Assembly: GCA_016783715.1 (NCBI GenBank)
Contig: JADHWA010000002.1
Span: forward strand, 1-49,694
Direction: 5' to 3'
From: Candidatus Omnitrophota bacterium
GTDB taxonomy: Bacteria > Omnitrophota > Gorgyraeia > Gygaellales > Profunditerraquicolaceae
DNA: 49,694 nucleotides
Positions 17,088-40,746 of the stretch are shown piece after piece. Positions within the stretch are counted from its first letter, which is position 1. The number at the start of each line of letters is the position of its first letter. Under the pieces are notes generated by a model. The model searched no databases and was not told where the DNA came from. It saw only the letters and a program-made list of their open reading frames with translations. Made by a program: the position numbers and the translations under genes.

Positions 17088-17774
17088 TTATTTCTCTAAC
17101 TTATCAATCCTCTGCCGCAACTCCTGGAGATGCTCCATAATCGGATCCAGTATATGGATATGGTCCAGATTTACGTCCATCTTCTTGCCATCCTGTTTGG
17201 TGATCCTCCCCGGGACACCTACCACTGTGGAATTCGCAGGGACATCCTTGATTACCACCGCATTTGCTCCGATATAGGAGTTGTCTCCGATGGTGATATT
17301 GCCTAAAATTTTGGCACCGGCTCCGATTACGACATTGTTGCCGATCGTCGGGTGGCGCTTCCCCTTCTCTATCCCGGTACCTCCCAGGGTCACCCCCTGA
17401 TACAAAAGCACGTTATCGCCGATGATCGAGGTCTCTCCTATAACCACCCCCATCCCGTGATCGATAAAGAACCCTTTTCCGATTTTGGCCCCGGGATGGA
17501 TCTCGATACCGGTGAAGAATCGCCCCAGCTGGCTTAAGAGGCGGGCAGAAAATAACAGCCGCATCTTAAGCAGAATATGGGCGATCCGGTAAAATATCAA
17601 TGCGTGCAGCCCCTGATAGAGAAAGAGCACCTCGAAGAAACTCTTGGCCGCAGGGTCCCTCTTTTGCGCTGTCCTTATCTCGCCAAAGAAAATTACAGAA
17701 AGTAGAATTGTCTTCAATACAAACAAGCCCAGAATTATAAGCAGAATCCACGTAATCATCATGCATAAAATCAT
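17088..17774 (-). CDS. cysE: serine O-acetyltransferase with hydrophobic N-terminal segment
   Basis: Left-handed beta-helix hexapeptide repeats, [12 protein letters not shown], and a KRDPAAKS N-cap. ATG 17774 is chosen because GGGAGA lies 8 nt upstream. The track ORF starts at 17813. Confidence 0.8.
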
Positions 17775-17978
17775 CTTTACTTCTCCCTGATGTAACCCCT
17801 GGATGAAAATCATGGGTTACATCTGATTACTGAGATTATCTCAGATTACAAAGATTATATGCGTCGAGCCTCTTATCAAGTTTTATCTTTAGAAAATTAA
17901 TCGCTGTAATCTTTTTTTCCCGCGAAGCGGGATCCCGCTATATGTTTTCTTTGATTTGGTGCGGGAAAATCAGTGTAA

Positions 17979-18485
17979 TCAGACATCCTTACTTTTTTCT
18001 TTATTGGATGTCTTGACTAATGTAGCTATGGCAAAACTGGCGATCGCCTGCTGTTGGCCGATCTCGCCTAATTTTTCTGAGGTCTTTCCCTTAATGCTGA
18101 CCCTCTCAACCCCTATCTCTAAAACCCCCGCTATCCTCCCCTGCATCTGCTTTTTGAATGGAAGAATCTTCGGCTCCTCGGCTATAACTATTGCATCAAT
18201 ATTATTAATCAGGAACTTTTTTCCTTTTACAATCTCATAGGTCCTCTCCAGCAGCTCGACCCCGGTGATATTTGCATATTTAGGGTCAGTGTCAGGAAAG
18301 TGCTCTCCGATATCACCCTCGGATATTGCCCCCAGGAGCGCATCGGCTATGGCGTGTATCAGCACATCGGCATCAGAGTGGCCAAATAGGCCCTTAATAA
18401 AAGGAATCTCCACGCCCCCTAGAAAGAGCTTGCGGTCCTCAACCAGCCGATGCATATCGTATCCTATGCCGCTGCGATATTCCAT
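17979..18485 (-). CDS. ispF: 2-C-methyl-D-erythritol 2,4-cyclodiphosphate synthase
   Basis: GIGYDMHRL and GHSDADVLIHA motifs. Confidence 0.95.
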   Translation of the reverse strand: MEYRSGIGYDMHRLVEDRKLFLGGVEIPFIKGLFGHSDADVLIHAIADALLGAISEGDIGEHFPDTDPKYANITGVELLERTYEIVKGKKFLINNIDAIVIAEEPKILPFKKQMQGRIAGVLEIGVERVSIKGKTSEKLGEIGQQQAIASFAIATLVKTSNKEKSKDV

Positions 18486-18493
18486 AAATAGAG

Positions 18494-19177
18494 TTATCTG
18501 CGTTTCTTTGCGATTACCCTGGCCACCTCTAAATCCTCGGCGGTGGTCACTTTGATATTTCTGTAATCACCTGCAACTATGCTCACCTTTACGCCGAGCT
18601 TCTCCACTAAAGAAGAATCATCGGTCACATCTGATTTAGCGAATCTCCGGTATGCCGCCAACAACTTATCAATCTTAAAGACCTGGGGGGTTTGTATCTC
18701 CCAAAGCTTCTCCCGCTCCAGCGTCTTCTCTACTACCTGAGCCCGGGATGCGCTTTTAATCGTCGACTTCACCGGGACCCCTACTATAGCAGCACCACTC
18801 TCTTGGGCCCGCTTAACTACCGACGAGATTAATCTGCTGTCAATAAAGGGCCTGGCGCTATCATGAATCAACACAAGCCCGGTATCATCGCCGCAAGCCC
18901 CAAGGCCGTTATACACTGAATCCTGCCGGCGCCTGCCGCCCAAGATGATTTTACCTACCTTAGTAAGACCGCTTTCCCGCACCCGACGGGCAATCTTGGC
19001 TCGGTTGGCGGAGTTTACCACAATAATTATCTCATTAATCAAAGGGTGTCTATTTAACTCTTCCAGAGAGTATAAAAAAAGTGGCTTATTCTTGATTTTG
19101 CTAAATAGCTTACAGCCCCACCCACCAAACCTTATACCTCTTCCGGCAGCCAGTACGATCGCTGATACGCGCATCAT
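18494..19177 (-). CDS. ispD: 2-C-methyl-D-erythritol 4-phosphate cytidylyltransferase
   Basis: [11 protein letters not shown] motif. Adjacent to ispF. Confidence 0.9.
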
Positions 19178-20162: not shown

Positions 20163-20263
20163 TTCAATGAGCGCATAACTTACGCGACTGCCAAGGAGCG
20201 TAAGTTATAAGCGCGAATTGATCCCGAGCCTTCCTAATTTTTTTAAAGTAGAGGCTGGGGATC
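20163..20263. repeat. modular hairpin element, copy 1 (modules A+B)
   Basis: Module A is TTCAAT-GA-GCGC-ATAACTTACGC, loop, GCGTAAGTTAT-AA-GCGC-GA-ATTGA (20163-20221). Module B is GATCCCGAGCCT/AGGCTGGGGATC (20220-20263). Confidence 0.8.
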
Positions 20264-22261: not shown

Positions 22262-22486
22262 TTCAATAAGCAGATAACTTACGGAGTGAAATGACGTAAG
22301 TTATAGTCCCGCCCTTTTGTTAAAATTTAGTTTATCAATCCGTCCCAGCCCAAAAGGGCGGGACGTCTGCGCATTGAACCCCCCACCACTTTTTAATAAA
22401 AGTCTAAAAATAAAATTAGCGATCTCTAATCTCTCTGTGTTTAATTCCCCTCGCCTACTCTTTCTCTAAAAAGTGGTGGGGGGTCA
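22262..22486. repeat. modular hairpin element, copy 2 (module A with inserted hairpin, plus long module B)
   Basis: TTCAAT at 22262 and ATTGAA ending at 22378. Inserted 14-bp hairpin at 22306-22364. 17-bp inverted repeat CCCCCCACCACTTTTTA at 22379-22395 and 22467-22483. Confidence 0.85.
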
Positions 22487-29042: not shown

Positions 29043-29062
29043 CTCTCCTCCGTTTTTCTCTT

Positions 29063-33618: not shown

Positions 33619-33834
33619 TTCAATGAACACATAATTTACGATCCGCCGCAGGCGGAGAGTAAATTATATGTGTGAATTGAACCCCCCACCACTTTTTAAT
33701 AAAAGTCTAAAAAATAAAATTAACGATACAACTAACTACTTTATATTAAATAAATCCCGCCACCCACTCCTTCTCTAAAAAGTGGTGGGGGGTCAAATTC
33801 GGCCATCGAACTTACGTTACCGTAAGTTCGGGCC
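33619..33834. repeat. modular hairpin element, copy 3 (modules A+B+C)
   Basis: Module A at 33619-33681. Module B is the 17-bp inverted repeat at 33682-33698 and 33776-33792. AAATTCGG at 33795-33802. Module C hairpin at 33801-33834. Confidence 0.85.
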
Positions 33835-34245
33835 TCATTTGACTGTTCCCTTGACCACAAACTTTGATATGGGCTCTTCTGGATCGTCGGTAATCACATA
33901 GATGTGCTGCTTGACCACCCCGGAATACCCCTTACTGTTAAACTTCACATCTAAAGAGGTGCTCTCGCCGACAGAAAGCAAGCGCTTCTTGACATCAGAA
34001 ACCGTACAGCCGCAGCTTGTATTTACATCCTTGACCTGGAGATCTCTCTCTGTTGTGTTCTTAAATATAAACTCATGCTTTAATACATCCCCCTCCCTTA
34101 CCTGGCCAAAATCCCAGAAGTCAGCGATATCTGAGAGAGGCGAGGGACTGGTAGGCAGGGACTTCTGTCCCCCGGCACAACCGAAAAACAGACAACTTAT
34201 CATCGCTATTAATATAACTGAGACCTGCGGTCTGCCTAACATCAA
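33835..34245 (-). CDS. DUF1573 domain protein (probable lipoprotein)
   Basis: Lipobox-like LFFGCAG. DFGQV...G....H.F.F.N......V..SCGCT is the DUF1573 signature. Confidence 0.8.
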   Translation of the reverse strand: MMLGRPQVSVILIAMISCLFFGCAGGQKSLPTSPSPLSDIADFWDFGQVREGDVLKHEFIFKNTTERDLQVKDVNTSCGCTVSDVKKRLLSVGESTSLDVKFNSKGYSGVVKQHIYVITDDPEEPISKFVVKGTVK

Positions 34246-36650: not shown

Positions 36651-38063
36651 CTATAGCCCTAGGGCTTCTTCACCAGCTTCTAACACCTCAATCAAGAGGT
36701 TAACGATATGCGGGTTGAACTGCGTGCCTTTATTTTTCTCCAATTCCTTGACAGCATCGCTTTTACTGAAGGCAGCTCGATATGCTCTACTGGAAGTAAG
36801 CGCATCGTATGCATCGGCCACCGCTAAAATTTGCGCAAAGACATTAATGTTATCCCCGGCGAGTTTATCAGGATAGCCGGTACCGTCATATCGTTCATGA
36901 TGTCCCCGCACGACTGTCAACATCTCGGCATTTAACAATATCGGTCTTAGGATATCTTCGGCGATAACCGGATGTCTGCGAATCAAAGACCACTCATTGT
37001 CGGTCAGCTTTCCTTTTTTATTCAGGACGCTCTCCTTGATCCCTAACTTCCCGATATCATGGAGCAGAGCCGTCTCCCTGAGTAACTCAATCTGTTCATC
37101 TGTAAAGTTCATTTTAGCGGCGATCTTGACGGCGTAATCCGCTACCCTTTCTGAATGCCCTCCTGTATACGGATCCCTGGCCTCGATGATCTGAATCAAT
37201 GATTGGATCACGCGATAGAAATAACTATGCACCCGTCTTCTTGAACGGTAGAGGATATTGGCCATCTTATTGAAATGCCTGGCCAATTCACTTATCTCAT
37301 CGCCCCCCTCAATCCTTACCTGATACTGAAGGTCACCCATAGCGATATGACGGGTTCCTTCCACTAGCTTCCTGATCGGACCGGTTAATCTCCTTGAAAA
37401 TAATATCCCTAAAATTCCAGAAAAAACCACCCCTAAAAGCAGTATAATCAGCGCGCGCTTCTGCAGCGCCCTCCGGGTTAGATAAAGATCTTTGGCTCCG
37501 ACATCTATCCCGAGTATGGCTATGACCTTCCCGCTTGGATCATATATCGGTGAATACCCGGATAACGTAACTCCCCATTCATCAATCTTGAGCCTCTCGT
37601 CTGCGCTCGGCTCGCTAAATGCCTTCAACGCCTCCGGAAAGCCAGAGGCATCGAATTTATTCCCGGGGTAAGAGGTCATCCCCCTGTTCCTCTGTGCCCC
37701 CATGTATGGATCAGCATCGACGATAAACTGCAAGACCCCCGGCTGATCAGTCTTGGCTAAGGTGTAAATAAAACGCACCGAACGGTTCGCCTTCTTGATC
37801 CGACGTAATTCATCCATTACTTCCTTATATGCATGGGTCGCCGCACCCTGATACTCCATCGGCACCCGCATCAGCATATCCGGATTGATCATAAGAGCAG
37901 ATGTCCCGGCAAGCATCATCAGTTTTGACCGGAGCTGATTGAACTGTTTATCCATAGCAAATCTATAGATCAGAAAATTGCTTAGCGTCCCCATAAAAAT
38001 CATCGAAGCCACCAGTATCAGCGTAAGCTTAGTCTGAAAACTATTTATGCGAAATTTTATCAT
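36651..38063 (-). CDS. HD-GYP domain c-di-GMP phosphodiesterase with periplasmic sensor and HAMP
   Basis: Two TM segments around a sensor domain, a HAMP domain, HDIGK, and HHERYDGTGYP. Confidence 0.9.
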   Translation of the reverse strand: MIKFRINSFQTKLTLILVASMIFMGTLSNFLIYRFAMDKQFNQLRSKLMMLAGTSALMINPDMLMRVPMEYQGAATHAYKEVMDELRRIKKANRSVRFIYTLAKTDQPGVLQFIVDADPYMGAQRNRGMTSYPGNKFDASGFPEALKAFSEPSADERLKIDEWGVTLSGYSPIYDPSGKVIAILGIDVGAKDLYLTRRALQKRALIILLLGVVFSGILGILFSRRLTGPIRKLVEGTRHIAMGDLQYQVRIEGGDEISELARHFNKMANILYRSRRRVHSYFYRVIQSLIQIIEARDPYTGGHSERVADYAVKIAAKMNFTDEQIELLRETALLHDIGKLGIKESVLNKKGKLTDNEWSLIRRHPVIAEDILRPILLNAEMLTVVRGHHERYDGTGYPDKLAGDNINVFAQILAVADAYDALTSSRAYRAAFSKSDAVKELEKNKGTQFNPHIVNLLIEVLEAGEEALGL

Positions 38064-38093
38064 TTTTTCCTTTTAAGCTTAACCTAACCCTAC

Positions 38094-38309
38094 TTCAATA
38101 AGCACATCACTTAGCGAGTGCTAACGAAGCTAAGTGATAAGTGCGCATTGAACCCTGCACCCAAACAAGTAACAGTAGATACAAAACTGGGTGCGGGGTA
38201 AATTCGGGCACGGCCCATGGCTTACGTCATTTTCCCGCCAATCATTTACTTGTATCGCGGGATCCCGCCTCGATTCTATTTAGAATGGCGGGACATTCCG
38301 TAAGTCATG
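38094..38309. repeat. modular hairpin element, copy 4 (modules A+B+extended C)
   Basis: Module A at 38094-38152. Module B at 38152-38163 and 38188-38199. AAATTCGG at 38200-38207. Module C outer stem at 38216-38226 and 38299-38309, enclosing TCCCGCC/GGCGGGA and the palindrome GCGGGATCCCGC. Confidence 0.8.
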
Positions 38310-38318
38310 CCCTCACTT

Positions 38319-38346
38319 ATGATAATATAAATGCGCGATAATTCAA
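38319..38346 (-). promoter_or_regulatory. candidate promoter upstream of element copy 4 and the HD-GYP gene
   Basis: Minus strand reads TTGAAT (38346-38341), 16 nt, TATCAT (38324-38319). Confidence 0.35.
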
Positions 38347-38387
38347 ATATTTTTGCGACCGAACACTCCCCCAGTTAATACACTCTC

Positions 38388-39197
38388 TCAACCTGCCATT
38401 AAATTTAAGAGAAGCTGTAAGAATCTTATGACTTCAAAAGTATTTTTTAGATAATACTGCGCGGATGACTTTTTTGGCTCTCCGACAAAAATCGTAATTC
38501 CTCTTCTCTTTAGCACCCTGAAAGCATCCTCGTCGGTCTTATCATCGCCTATATAAATCGGAGTTGCCCCTTTTAGCTTATTTTTCTTAAGTAACCAGGA
38601 GACGATCTTGCCTTTATCCCATTCTATCGGGGGTCTTACCTCAAAGACTTTCTTTCCTCCTCTTACCTTAATCAAATTCCCTGCCAGCGCTCCCCTGACT
38701 GTCCGTCGGAAAGCAGCCTTCAATCCAGATAGCTTACTGTCGGGTGTCATCCGGTAGTGGATACTCAGGGTAAGCCCCTTATCTTCAACAATCGCGCCCT
38801 TAAATTGCCTTAGCCGCTTATTCAAATCGCGTTTAATCTGTTTAAGCGTCCTTTTATATTCAGCTGAAAGATTATTGGCCGGCTTCAATTTAACTCCAGA
38901 TACTTCCAGACCGTGGTTTCCCGAATAGATGATACTCTTCACCCCCACCCTGATCCTGAGATCCTTCAGGGATCTTCCACTGATCACTGCCAGACAGACC
39001 TTCTGCCTAAGGGAGAGTCTTTTCAGCAATTTTTTACATTTCTTTGATATTTTGGCTTTTTTGGGGTGGCTGACGATCGGGGACAGAGTTCCGTCGTAAT
39101 CCAGGAAGAGAAAGATCTTTCTTTTGGCTAGGCGGCTTTGGAGTTGCTTACGATGATCAAACAGATATCTCATGCGGGTATTATTCTTTAAACTCAA
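38388..39197 (-). CDS. otsB: trehalose-phosphatase
   Basis: HAD motif I FLDYDGTL and motif IV GDDKTDEDAF. Overlaps otsA. Confidence 0.85.
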   Translation of the reverse strand: MSLKNNTRMRYLFDHRKQLQSRLAKRKIFLFLDYDGTLSPIVSHPKKAKISKKCKKLLKRLSLRQKVCLAVISGRSLKDLRIRVGVKSIIYSGNHGLEVSGVKLKPANNLSAEYKRTLKQIKRDLNKRLRQFKGAIVEDKGLTLSIHYRMTPDSKLSGLKAAFRRTVRGALAGNLIKVRGGKKVFEVRPPIEWDKGKIVSWLLKKNKLKGATPIYIGDDKTDEDAFRVLKRRGITIFVGEPKKSSAQYYLKNTFEVIRFLQLLLNLMAG

Positions 39198-40659: not shown

Positions 40660-40746
40660 ATCTATATCCTGGTATAATCATCAGGCATAATCATAGATTA
40701 TACCTGATCAAGACATCCTCTTGTTTTCCATTATATAATGTCCTCT

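Follow-up and report, generated by a model that had tools for sequence, protein, structure and literature searches.

A hairpin element of Candidatus Omnitrophota as a probable member of a palindromic mosaic repeat family

Two genes on the minus strand of a Candidatus Omnitrophota contig are separated by a 324-nt gap, and this gap holds a hairpin element at positions 38094-38346 of the window (the whole stretch of DNA that was analysed, 49,694 nt in length). The questions raised by the locus are what this element is, which strand of it folds, and whether it acts as DNA or as RNA. Its upstream neighbour is a trehalose-phosphatase gene (38388-39197, minus strand). Downstream lies an HD-GYP gene with HAMP and HD_5 domains (ORF 36651-38063, minus strand), for which the start codon is the ATG at 38063-38061 (span 38052-38063) and the probable ribosome-binding site is AAGGAA at about 38076-38071, upstream of that span.

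A sequence-only reading had described the element as modular, hairpin-forming and one of four related loci (referred to here as copy 4), and this description was borne out by folding, by shuffles and by a covariance model. The stems, loops, palindromes and wobble pairs that it listed are all in place. The region 38090-38325 forms three hairpins on either strand, with fold energies of -94.3 kcal/mol on the plus strand (z -7.8) and -93.3 kcal/mol on the minus strand (z -6.3), and none of 200 shuffles folded as well.

A composite element between two minus-strand genes

Copy 4 is one full composite, consisting of an A unit, a B hairpin and an inverted A unit (A'). Each A-type unit has a GA strand, defined as the strand on which, in the family at large, both internal loops are tandem G·A and the terminal loops are G..A. 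Along the plus strand of the window, which is its GA strand, the start-proximal A unit (38094-38152; inverted repeats I6 and I7) reads TTCAAT, AA, GCAC, ATCACTTAGC, a 13-nt tip, GCTAAGTGAT, AA, GTGC, GC and ATTGAA. These segments form the P1 helix TTCAAT/ATTGAA (38094-38099/38147-38152), an AA/GC internal loop where the family consensus is instead GA/GA (38100-38101/38145-38146), the P2 helix GCAC/GTGC (38102-38105/38141-38144) and the P3 helix ATCACTTAGC/GCTAAGTGAT (38106-38115/38129-38138). The tip occupies 38116-38128 and an AA bulge lies at 38139-38140. The unit scored 63.9 bits (E 2e-15) with covariance model R1, and it differs from copies 1-3 by compensatory changes, for example ATCACTTAGC/GCTAAGTGAT against ATAACTTACG/CGTAAGTTAT. 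The distance from the A unit to the ribosome-binding site of the HD-GYP gene is 30 nt; most family members adjoin the SD directly.

Module B (38152-38199) begins directly after the A unit and forms a hairpin around a 24-nt loop, with one C-rich and one G-rich arm (ACCCTGCACCCA ... TGGGTGCGGGGT). Its arms (38152-38163/38188-38199) are complementary at 11 of 12 positions (I4, 92%) and include the wobble T38156·G38195.

The remainder of the element had been taken for a separate module C of about 94 nt. Its stems and palindromes were confirmed, but its extent was not: cmsearch matched 38198-38320 on the minus strand (123 nt, 26.6 bits), with the GA strand on the minus strand. Read on that strand, A' runs ATAAGT, GA, GGGC, A, TGACTTACG, a 72-nt tip, CGTAAGCCA, tgggccgt, GCCC, GA and ATTTAC, and so repeats the plan of module A, with P1 (ATAAGT/ATTTAC), a GA/GA loop, P2 (GGGC/GCCC), a bulge and P3. 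What had been called module C is a second A-type hairpin, inverted and with a nested apical insert, rather than a module of a new kind. Likewise, AAATTCGG, located at 38200-38207, is the 3' end of the A' unit in reverse complement.

The outer stem assigned to module C (38216-38226/38299-38309) contains the pair G38220·T38305, and its second stem, TCCCGCC/GGCGGGA, belongs to the insert nested in the A' tip (38233-38295; I8 and I9). This hairpin holds both palindromes, GCGGGATCCCGC (38257-38268) and ATTCTA-TT-TAGAAT (38273-38286). The insert looks like a B-like module of the CCCGCC type, since CCCGCC is a recurrent family of B arms. The 12-mer GCGGGATCCCGC recurs at 17927-17938, in another intergenic palindrome cluster of the window.

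The hairpin unit, its family and its place beside genes

The 5'-arm motif of the A unit matched four times in the window (20162, 22261, 33618 and 38093) against 0.00 matches expected. With the opposite-strand model matches at 33793-33842 (43.9 bits) and at the A' unit of copy 4, the 49.7-kb window contains six units, four A and two A'. Covariance-model E-values of the window copies range from 1e-9 to 1e-18. Copy 1 (20163-20263, plus strand; 74.7 bits) consists of an A unit (20163-20222) and a B hairpin (20220-20263), and is flush with the GGAGG-AATCAT-ATG of a PIN/TRAM gene. Copy 2 (22262-22486, plus strand) has a three-way A unit (22262-22378), in which a third hairpin is inserted at the bulge (22307-22366), followed by a long B hairpin (about 22378-22486). 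It lies within an operon and fills the entire gap between mlaF (stop codon 22488-22490) and mlaD (start 22249). Copy 3 (33619-33842) is a composite of A (33619-33681, plus strand; 68.4 bits), B (about 33680-33795) and A' (33793-33842, minus strand), and the upstream DUF1573 gene has as its stop codon the TGA in the AATGA of this A' unit. Copies 3 and 4 follow the A-B-A' plan, and copies 1 and 2 have A and B only.

Beyond the window, a covariance model trained on 17 simple A hairpins was combined with two pattern scans. In species-representative genomes the first scan yielded 118 loci, including about 70 chance matches in other phyla; the loci that match the model are labelled Omnitrophota, apart from a few labelled uncultured Planctomycetia/Planctomycetales or 'bacterium'. 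A second scan, agnostic to P1 and P2 and run on metagenomes, added 120 loci, nearly all of them model-positive. Altogether 232 units were parsed from Omnitrophota MAGs and metagenomes. The loci that bear them range from 36% to 54% G+C and come from groundwater, lake, marine and deep-subsurface samples. In the other loci, not counting the seed match, a further unit occurs about every 12-17 kb, and comparison with coding features placed all units in intergenic DNA.

Rfam 15 covariance models gave no match to the window at the gathering threshold, and at E values up to 10 they returned only noise on copy 4 and on locus L121. The element was absent from the viral contigs scanned. Literature searches found nothing on hairpin, intergenic or repetitive elements of Omnitrophota/Omnitrophica, and a search by sequence string matched only CMV-enhancer primers. 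The element apparently represents a previously undescribed repeat family that is well defined and unusually precise in position.

The building block of the family, about 58 nt long, is a hairpin of fixed polarity. Along the GA strand the order is P1, GA/GA, P2, bulge, P3, GA/GA and a variable tip, followed by a CCC-rich B hairpin. P1 has five pairs (for example TCAAT/ATTGA, TAAAT/ATTTA or TAAGT/ACTTA), P2 has four, and P3 has nine to ten with the core AACTTAYG/CRTAAGTT. The bulge consists of 2-3 nt on the 3' side or is replaced by a third hairpin. The unit ends read TTNAAT...ATTNAA-CCC, and the 5' foot of the palindrome is (N)TnAAT-GA, as in TTCAAT, TTAAAT or ATAAGT. Among 182 distinct cores, pairing extends to 96.7% of the P1-P3 positions; shuffling the 3' arms among sequences lowers this share to 76.9% (maximum 78.6%). 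Compensatory double changes occur in all 18 columns, in up to 84 sequences per column, and one-sided changes number 0-5 per column. The hairpin pairing is real.

Several known RNA motifs were considered for this fold and set aside. A kink-turn was rejected because both G·A motifs are symmetric 2x2 loops in a continuous helix, with no asymmetric 3-nt bulge next to tandem sheared G·A pairs. The resemblance to a hammerhead or to group II domain 5 (UGA...GAA around a helix; AGC with a 2-nt bulge) failed on core mismatches and helix lengths, by reasoning from the sequence.

CCC follows the unit in 165 of 228 cases, and a hairpin starts within 3 nt in 167 of 228. The commonest B arm is CCCTTGACA (about 36 of 228), other families include CCCCACACC, CCCCCCACC and CCCGCC, and B loops measure 4-72 nt. 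Composites are mostly A-B-A' with the 3' ends facing across B (51 cases); one has the 5' ends facing and two are tandem. The gap between paired units has a median of 50 nt (24-108 nt).

The B hairpin might be read as a terminator/promoter cassette, acting either as a bidirectional terminator or through a -35 box (TTGACA) in B that, with a -10 box in the neighbouring P1, resets transcription. Short-loop forms of the commonest arm do give TTGACA-N16/17-TAAATT or TAAGTT on both strands, stop-side units are somewhat enriched between convergent genes, and Correia elements can create promoters (PMC2649163). However, a sigma-70 promoter of this kind works only for the short-loop CCCTTGACA forms: most B families have no -35 box, loops of 4-72 nt destroy the spacing, and the commonest start-side P1, TTCAAT, is not -10-like. 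In copy 4 itself, B (CCCTGCACCC) contains no TTGACA. Intrinsic termination was rejected as well, as B is followed by TTNAATTC rather than a U-tract and a terminator scan of 37900-38500 found no sites. Such a cassette is improbable. The promoter TTGAAT-16-TATCAT that had been suggested for copy 4 fared no better; it matches the consensus at 9 of 12 positions, and the region holds 3 such sites, a chance-level number, against 1.7±1.3 in shuffles.

The placement of the unit relative to genes is highly regular. Without exception, the GA strand points its 5' end towards a gene and its 3' end towards the B hairpin. The coding feature closest to the 5' end is either a start codon, at a median distance of 9 nt, or a stop codon, for which the median of -4 nt falls inside the unit; from the 3' end, the median distance to the closest feature is 70-100 nt. 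The 5' end is accordingly flush with an SD, or within 2 nt of an ATG that has no SD, or contains a stop codon. Start-side units fall into two classes: in the first, GGAGG directly adjoins the hairpin foot and the ATG follows at 9-13 nt, and in the second, of about 29 units, the ATG lies at -2 to +2 nt, there is no SD, and P1 is composed of A and T only. In stop-side units the stop codon is the TAA at +1 (NTAAAT, NTAAGT) or the TGA of AATGA at +5. The two sides also differ in sequence, with TCAAT and GCRC/GCAG in P1 and P2 of start-side units and TAAGT/CAAAT with GGCC/GGAC/AGCC in stop-side units. Of the 51 composites, 31 are flanked by co-directional genes, 6 by convergent ones and one to three by divergent ones.

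Neighbouring genes include radA, mlaFED, htpX, otsAB, rpsE and infB. The 44 downstream proteins have amino-acid, nucleotide, envelope, translation and signalling functions, and the downstream genes include hom, gap, cysE, ilvD, ilvE, glyA, purH, folE, rplU, rpsE, infB, rny and pilT; units stand directly upstream of rpsE, rplU and infB. Since units occur inside operons, as between mlaF and mlaD, they must be co-transcribed. A gene-specific cis-regulatory leader (riboswitch, ribosomal-protein leader or attenuator) was rejected because the downstream genes belong to no single functional class. As a general rule, an anti-SD switch, in which CUCC in the tip would pair with GGAGG, was also discarded, as GGAG/CUCC is equally conserved in stop-side units and in units without an SD.

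Strand asymmetry, gain and loss

The sequence-only reading had tentatively suggested, from a tandem G·A motif and two wobble pairs, that the whole element folds on the plus strand, as antisense RNA or as single-stranded DNA. The G·A asymmetry proved to be family-wide: the first internal loop is GA/GA in 161 of 174 metagenome units, and terminal loops on the GA strand are G..A in 63 cases against 3 of the mirror type T..C. These features are kept equally in start-side (92/99) and stop-side (61/67) units, while the GA strand is antisense in the former and sense in the latter. The strand asymmetry is thus shown to belong to the unit, independent of gene direction. A single folding strand for the whole element did not survive, as the GA strand of A' in copy 4 is the minus strand, on which G38220·T38305 becomes an A·C clash.

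The wobble argument also failed when tallied over about 230 units. Counted on the GA strand, the genome set has 15 G·T and 21 A·C pairs, and the metagenome set 37 and 39 (52 and 60 in total). Split by context, start-side units have 24 A·C and 13 G·T, and stop-side units 11 G·T and 5 A·C (Fisher's exact p=0.036). Pooled in the sense mRNA, this gives 35 G·U against 18 A·C (binomial p=0.027), so that the wobbles mildly favour G·U in sense mRNA. Antisense plus-strand RNA, or one fixed plus-strand fold, does agree with the start-side tandem G·A and G..A loops, which lie on the antisense strand. Yet A' of the same element carries its GA strand on the opposite strand, the wobbles are balanced overall with a lean to sense, no promoter for such a transcript is evident, and the family adjoins hundreds of unrelated genes. 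Nothing points to an antisense RNA, and this explanation is very improbable.

The other half of that proposal, a fold in single-stranded DNA, is viable. The commonest terminal loops are GAA (18), GATA (11), GTAA (10) and GCA (9). The classic extra-stable DNA mini-hairpins of Hirao, Yoshizawa and colleagues reportedly have C-GNA-G triloops or GNNA loops with a closing sheared G·A pair, and GATA is not a GNRA loop of RNA. Because the loops are of these DNA types, GATA is not GNRA and G·U pairs are scarce overall, the data hint that the conserved asymmetry is read in DNA.

A more specific version of this idea would make the unit a functional ssDNA site, such as an attC-like recombination site, an end of the IS200/IS605 type, or a hairpin promoter or priming site on the template strand. 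The strand-specific hairpin with its mini-hairpin loops fits such a site, the excess of G·U over A·C is modest and far below that of structured RNAs, and the GA strand is the template strand in start-side units. Against it, the units contain no attC R/L boxes (RYYYAAC/GTTRRRY) and their neighbours are core housekeeping operons, not cassettes. The end hairpins of IS200/IS605 have the same orientation, whereas the units here are inverted, and no integrase or Y1 gene was seen nearby. Hairpin promoters are, to our knowledge, confined to phage N4-type polymerases. We consider a site of any of these kinds quite improbable.

Seven pairs of filled and empty orthologous sites were found (L068/window 29043-29062, L139/L210, L146/L222, L188/L185, L212/L170, L229/L189 and L183/L140), and comparison of these sites shows gain or loss of the element. 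The element occupies the whole gap in every filled site. At L068, a unit stands between the stop codon of an ABC-ATPase gene and the SD of an ilvE-like gene; the corresponding stretch of the window (29043-29062) is a 20-nt spacer. In L146/L222, L188/L185 and L229/L189, the 20-26-nt SD-bearing spacer of the empty ortholog is absent from the filled site, and 1 nt separates the hairpin from the same ATG. The native GGAG is kept in L212/L170, where the element adjoins it, with TAA on both sides. This pair possibly has a target-site duplication, of TA or TAA, though the flanks of the filled/empty pairs are just 70-80% identical, too diverged to read. At L191/L210, a site filled in both genomes, the element persists with compensatory differences in P1 and P2.

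The window, metagenomic DNA of a bacterial chromosome, is syntenic with two Candidatus Omnitrophota genomes at 66-74% nucleotide identity, and ENA contigs near-identical to it exist. Apparent insertions in two of these contigs (L001 and L002) proved not to be polymorphism: they are scaffold gaps of 100 N with 55-mer overlaps.

By comparison of copies, the modules reassort. Copies 2 and 3 of the window have a common 115-nt B at 87-92% identity and different A subtypes, two copies at L121 have an identical 85-nt A and different B modules, and B-like hairpins are also nested in A tips and at the bulge site.

The position of the units next to translation signals could also indicate dedicated RNA punctuation. 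The sense-strand hairpin would then be an endoribonuclease site, for RNase III or an Omnitrophota-specific enzyme, cut at or near its foot. Cleavage would yield downstream cistrons with a 5'-terminal SD or a (near-)leaderless AUG, and upstream cistrons with a protective 3' hairpin. The bimodal distance from foot to ATG (9-13 nt where the SD is flush, -2 to +2 nt where there is none), the three sites at which a native SD-bearing spacer was exchanged for the element with the start codon unchanged, the G·U bias in sense mRNA, the units inside ribosomal-protein and other operons, and the phylum-wide core sequence are all in its favour. The start-side G·A and G..A loops, however, lie on the antisense strand, so that the mRNA has U·C/C·U mismatches and UNC loops, neither of them a known recognition motif. 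In addition, the elements are dispensable at orthologous sites and there is no candidate enzyme. On this evidence, dedicated RNA punctuation is rather unlikely.

The reading that we favour, at slightly better than even confidence, is that copy 4 is a member of a high-copy, co-transcribed palindromic mosaic repeat, similar to REP/REPIN/BIME or Correia elements, that occurs across Candidatus Omnitrophota. This reading follows from the high copy number, the strictly intergenic location, the inverted units around a spacer hairpin, the gain and loss, and the co-transcription. Antisense RNA, attC-like sites, IS200-type ends, terminators and promoters are much less likely. As a repeat of this kind, the element would be propagated or maintained as DNA through its strand-specific hairpin, which would probably be recognised by an enzyme in single-stranded DNA. 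A crude HUH/Y1 motif scan of 1774 ORF segments from element-bearing loci, a weak test for a transposase or nuclease partner, gave no candidates.

In mRNA, the hairpins may serve as structural punctuation; all of these RNA-level roles we infer from sequence. A GA-form hairpin just after the stop codon of the upstream cistron would protect the 3' end of that cistron. The stable hairpin at the foot of the downstream translation start might be a 5' protector, an insulator or, by analogy with Correia elements, a processing site of the RNase III type.

Some observations sit badly with a purely selfish repeat, namely the phylum-wide core, the start-side and stop-side subfamilies, the replacement of SD spacers and the sense-strand G·U bias. 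Conservation of the core across MAGs of 36-54% G+C argues for a stronger functional constraint than a selfish repeat needs. The replacement of native SD-containing spacers and the distinct start-side and stop-side subfamilies look like function, not parasitism. The four observations lend some weight to dedicated mRNA punctuation or processing, in which the hairpin foot would mark where the functional translation initiation region begins. A domesticated, phylum-wide 'cistron boundary' device of Omnitrophota may also be imagined. Such a module would provide the stop of one gene and the 5' end or start of the next, and would perhaps replace the SD, with about one quarter of start-side units driving an SD-less AUG at the hairpin foot. 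Its tandem-G·A hairpin would be read by a dedicated protein, in DNA for propagation or in RNA for processing. We regard this device as unlikely.

Known repeat systems and the meaning of the element

Among known repeats, REP, REPIN and BIME elements of Proteobacteria resemble the Omnitrophota unit in being short imperfect palindromes that are extragenic, present in high copy and arranged in mosaics with other motifs, with strand-specific hairpin features and co-transcription with flanking genes. REPINs consist of two inverted REPs and a spacer (PMC3337134, PMC3116915), and this inverted-doublet form is matched by the 51 A-B-A' composites against one of the opposite arrangement. Unlike REPs, the Omnitrophota unit shows no sequence similarity to them and no GTAG tetranucleotide at the 5' foot. 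It is also larger, with about 58 nt, three helices and tandem G·A loops at two places, and invariably comes with a CCC-rich B. Start and stop signals directly adjoin the unit, while REPs are found mainly at 3' ends. The core of the unit is kept across a phylum, not a genus; as a rule, REP and MITE families do not extend beyond one species or genus. No RAYT was identified for the unit in a crude scan of element-bearing loci.

Correia elements (CREE/NEMIS) of Neisseria share with the Omnitrophota element a length of about 100-200 nt, inverted ends, a position next to genes, co-transcription and a long hairpin. They adjoin genes, are reportedly bound or cut by RNase III, alter the expression of neighbours, and are present or absent between strains (PMC2649163). 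The two sequences are unrelated, and the ends differ in build: that of Correia is a simple 26-bp inverted repeat, accompanied by a TA duplication and an IHF site, whereas the Omnitrophota end is a structured hairpin.

BOX elements of Streptococcus pneumoniae (boxA-boxB-boxC) and ERIC/IRU elements of enterobacteria are modular or long imperfect palindromic intergenic repeats. Both are transcribed and influence mRNA stability, and ERIC is unusually widely conserved for a repeat. We know of no reported rule of placement flush with an SD or start codon, or of a contained stop codon, for either. Their sequences are unrelated to that of the Omnitrophota unit, and the tandem G·A signature belongs to the latter only.

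The attC sites are also imperfect hairpins between co-oriented genes that fold on one strand as ssDNA, with variable terminal structure and extra-helical bases. In contrast, the Omnitrophota unit has no R''/R' core (RYYYAAC ... GTTRRRY) and no integrase context, occurs in inverted pairs and has core-operon neighbours. The ends of IS200/IS605 differ in that paired Omnitrophota units are inverted, lie 24-108 nt apart and have no transposase between them.

Omnitrophota are abundant, mostly uncultured and often ultra-small bacteria in which gene expression is unstudied. A repeat that fills intergenic gaps, contains stop codons and abuts or replaces ribosome-binding sites would affect gene calling and operon prediction in this phylum, and also assembly, since the repeat may interrupt contigs. 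Should the element be no more than REP-like, it would be an unusually ancient and well-behaved repeat, useful as a phylogenetic and strain marker. If the hairpin foot does define mRNA ends or SD-independent starts, the element would be a natural counterpart of the synthetic hairpin/Csy4 'insulators' that standardise translation, and would offer a handle on polycistronic expression in streamlined genomes.

Possible module exchange and assembly breaks

The B modules (CCC-rich hairpins) of repeat copies 2 and 3 (22368-22486 and 33671-33795) are 87-92% identical across approximately 115 nt, including the unpaired loop, despite the fact that the A hairpin units of the two copies belong to different subtypes. 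This combination suggests that B was recently copied, or underwent gene conversion, independently of A. The Logan contig L003 terminates at position 22381 of the window, a few nucleotides beyond the A unit of copy 2 (22262-22378) and just within its B module; the position of this end may be a sign that the repeat breaks assemblies. Apparent insertions in the near-identical ENA contigs L001 (5891-5990 and 13207-13305) and L002 (4887-4986) were rejected. Each is a 100-N scaffold gap with duplicated 55-mers on either side, an assembler artefact that imitates an insertion.

Smaller repeats in the window

Separate from copies 1-4, an intergenic cluster of small palindromes lies at 17813-17979, containing CCCGC-GAA-GCGGG, GCGGGATCCCGC (17927-17938) and GATTAC/GTAATC repeats. 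The 12-mer GCGGGATCCCGC is also found in the tip insert of the inverted A-type unit (A') of copy 4, and its presence in both places suggests that small hairpin modules of the CCCGC type form a second family. The 21-mer AATCATGGGTTACATCTGATT (family D12) is present in three copies with 76-100% identity (17808-17828, 18616-18636 and 40689-40709), the first of which covers the start codon of gene 17088..17813.

Reading frames, promoter-like arrangements and the S5 locus

A 66-aa ORF with a GTG start (38141-38341, + strand) is contained wholly within the A, B and A' modules of copy 4. This frame is almost certainly not a true gene, although gene callers could annotate it. In canonical start-side units, whose GA strand (carrying the tandem G·A loops) has its 5' end adjoining a start codon or SD, the GA-strand consensus ATG AGC RCA TAA forms a three-codon ORF (e.g. 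20166-20177), which probably arises incidentally from conservation of the AATGA and ATAAC motifs.

At L149, L210, L212, L028 and L223, B hairpins of the short-loop CCCTTGACA type give TTGACA-N16/17-TAAATT or TAAGTT on both strands. These arrangements are candidate outward-facing sigma-70-like promoters, in which the -10 box would be supplied by the outermost A stem (P1) of the neighbouring unit, and they are confined to a minority of elements. A complete A'-B-A composite at L028 (5444-5616) is located directly upstream of the gene for ribosomal protein S5. This gene, rpsE, is usually found within a conserved ribosomal-protein gene cluster. If that is also true at L028, the composite would occupy an unusual site for a 170-nt structured insert.
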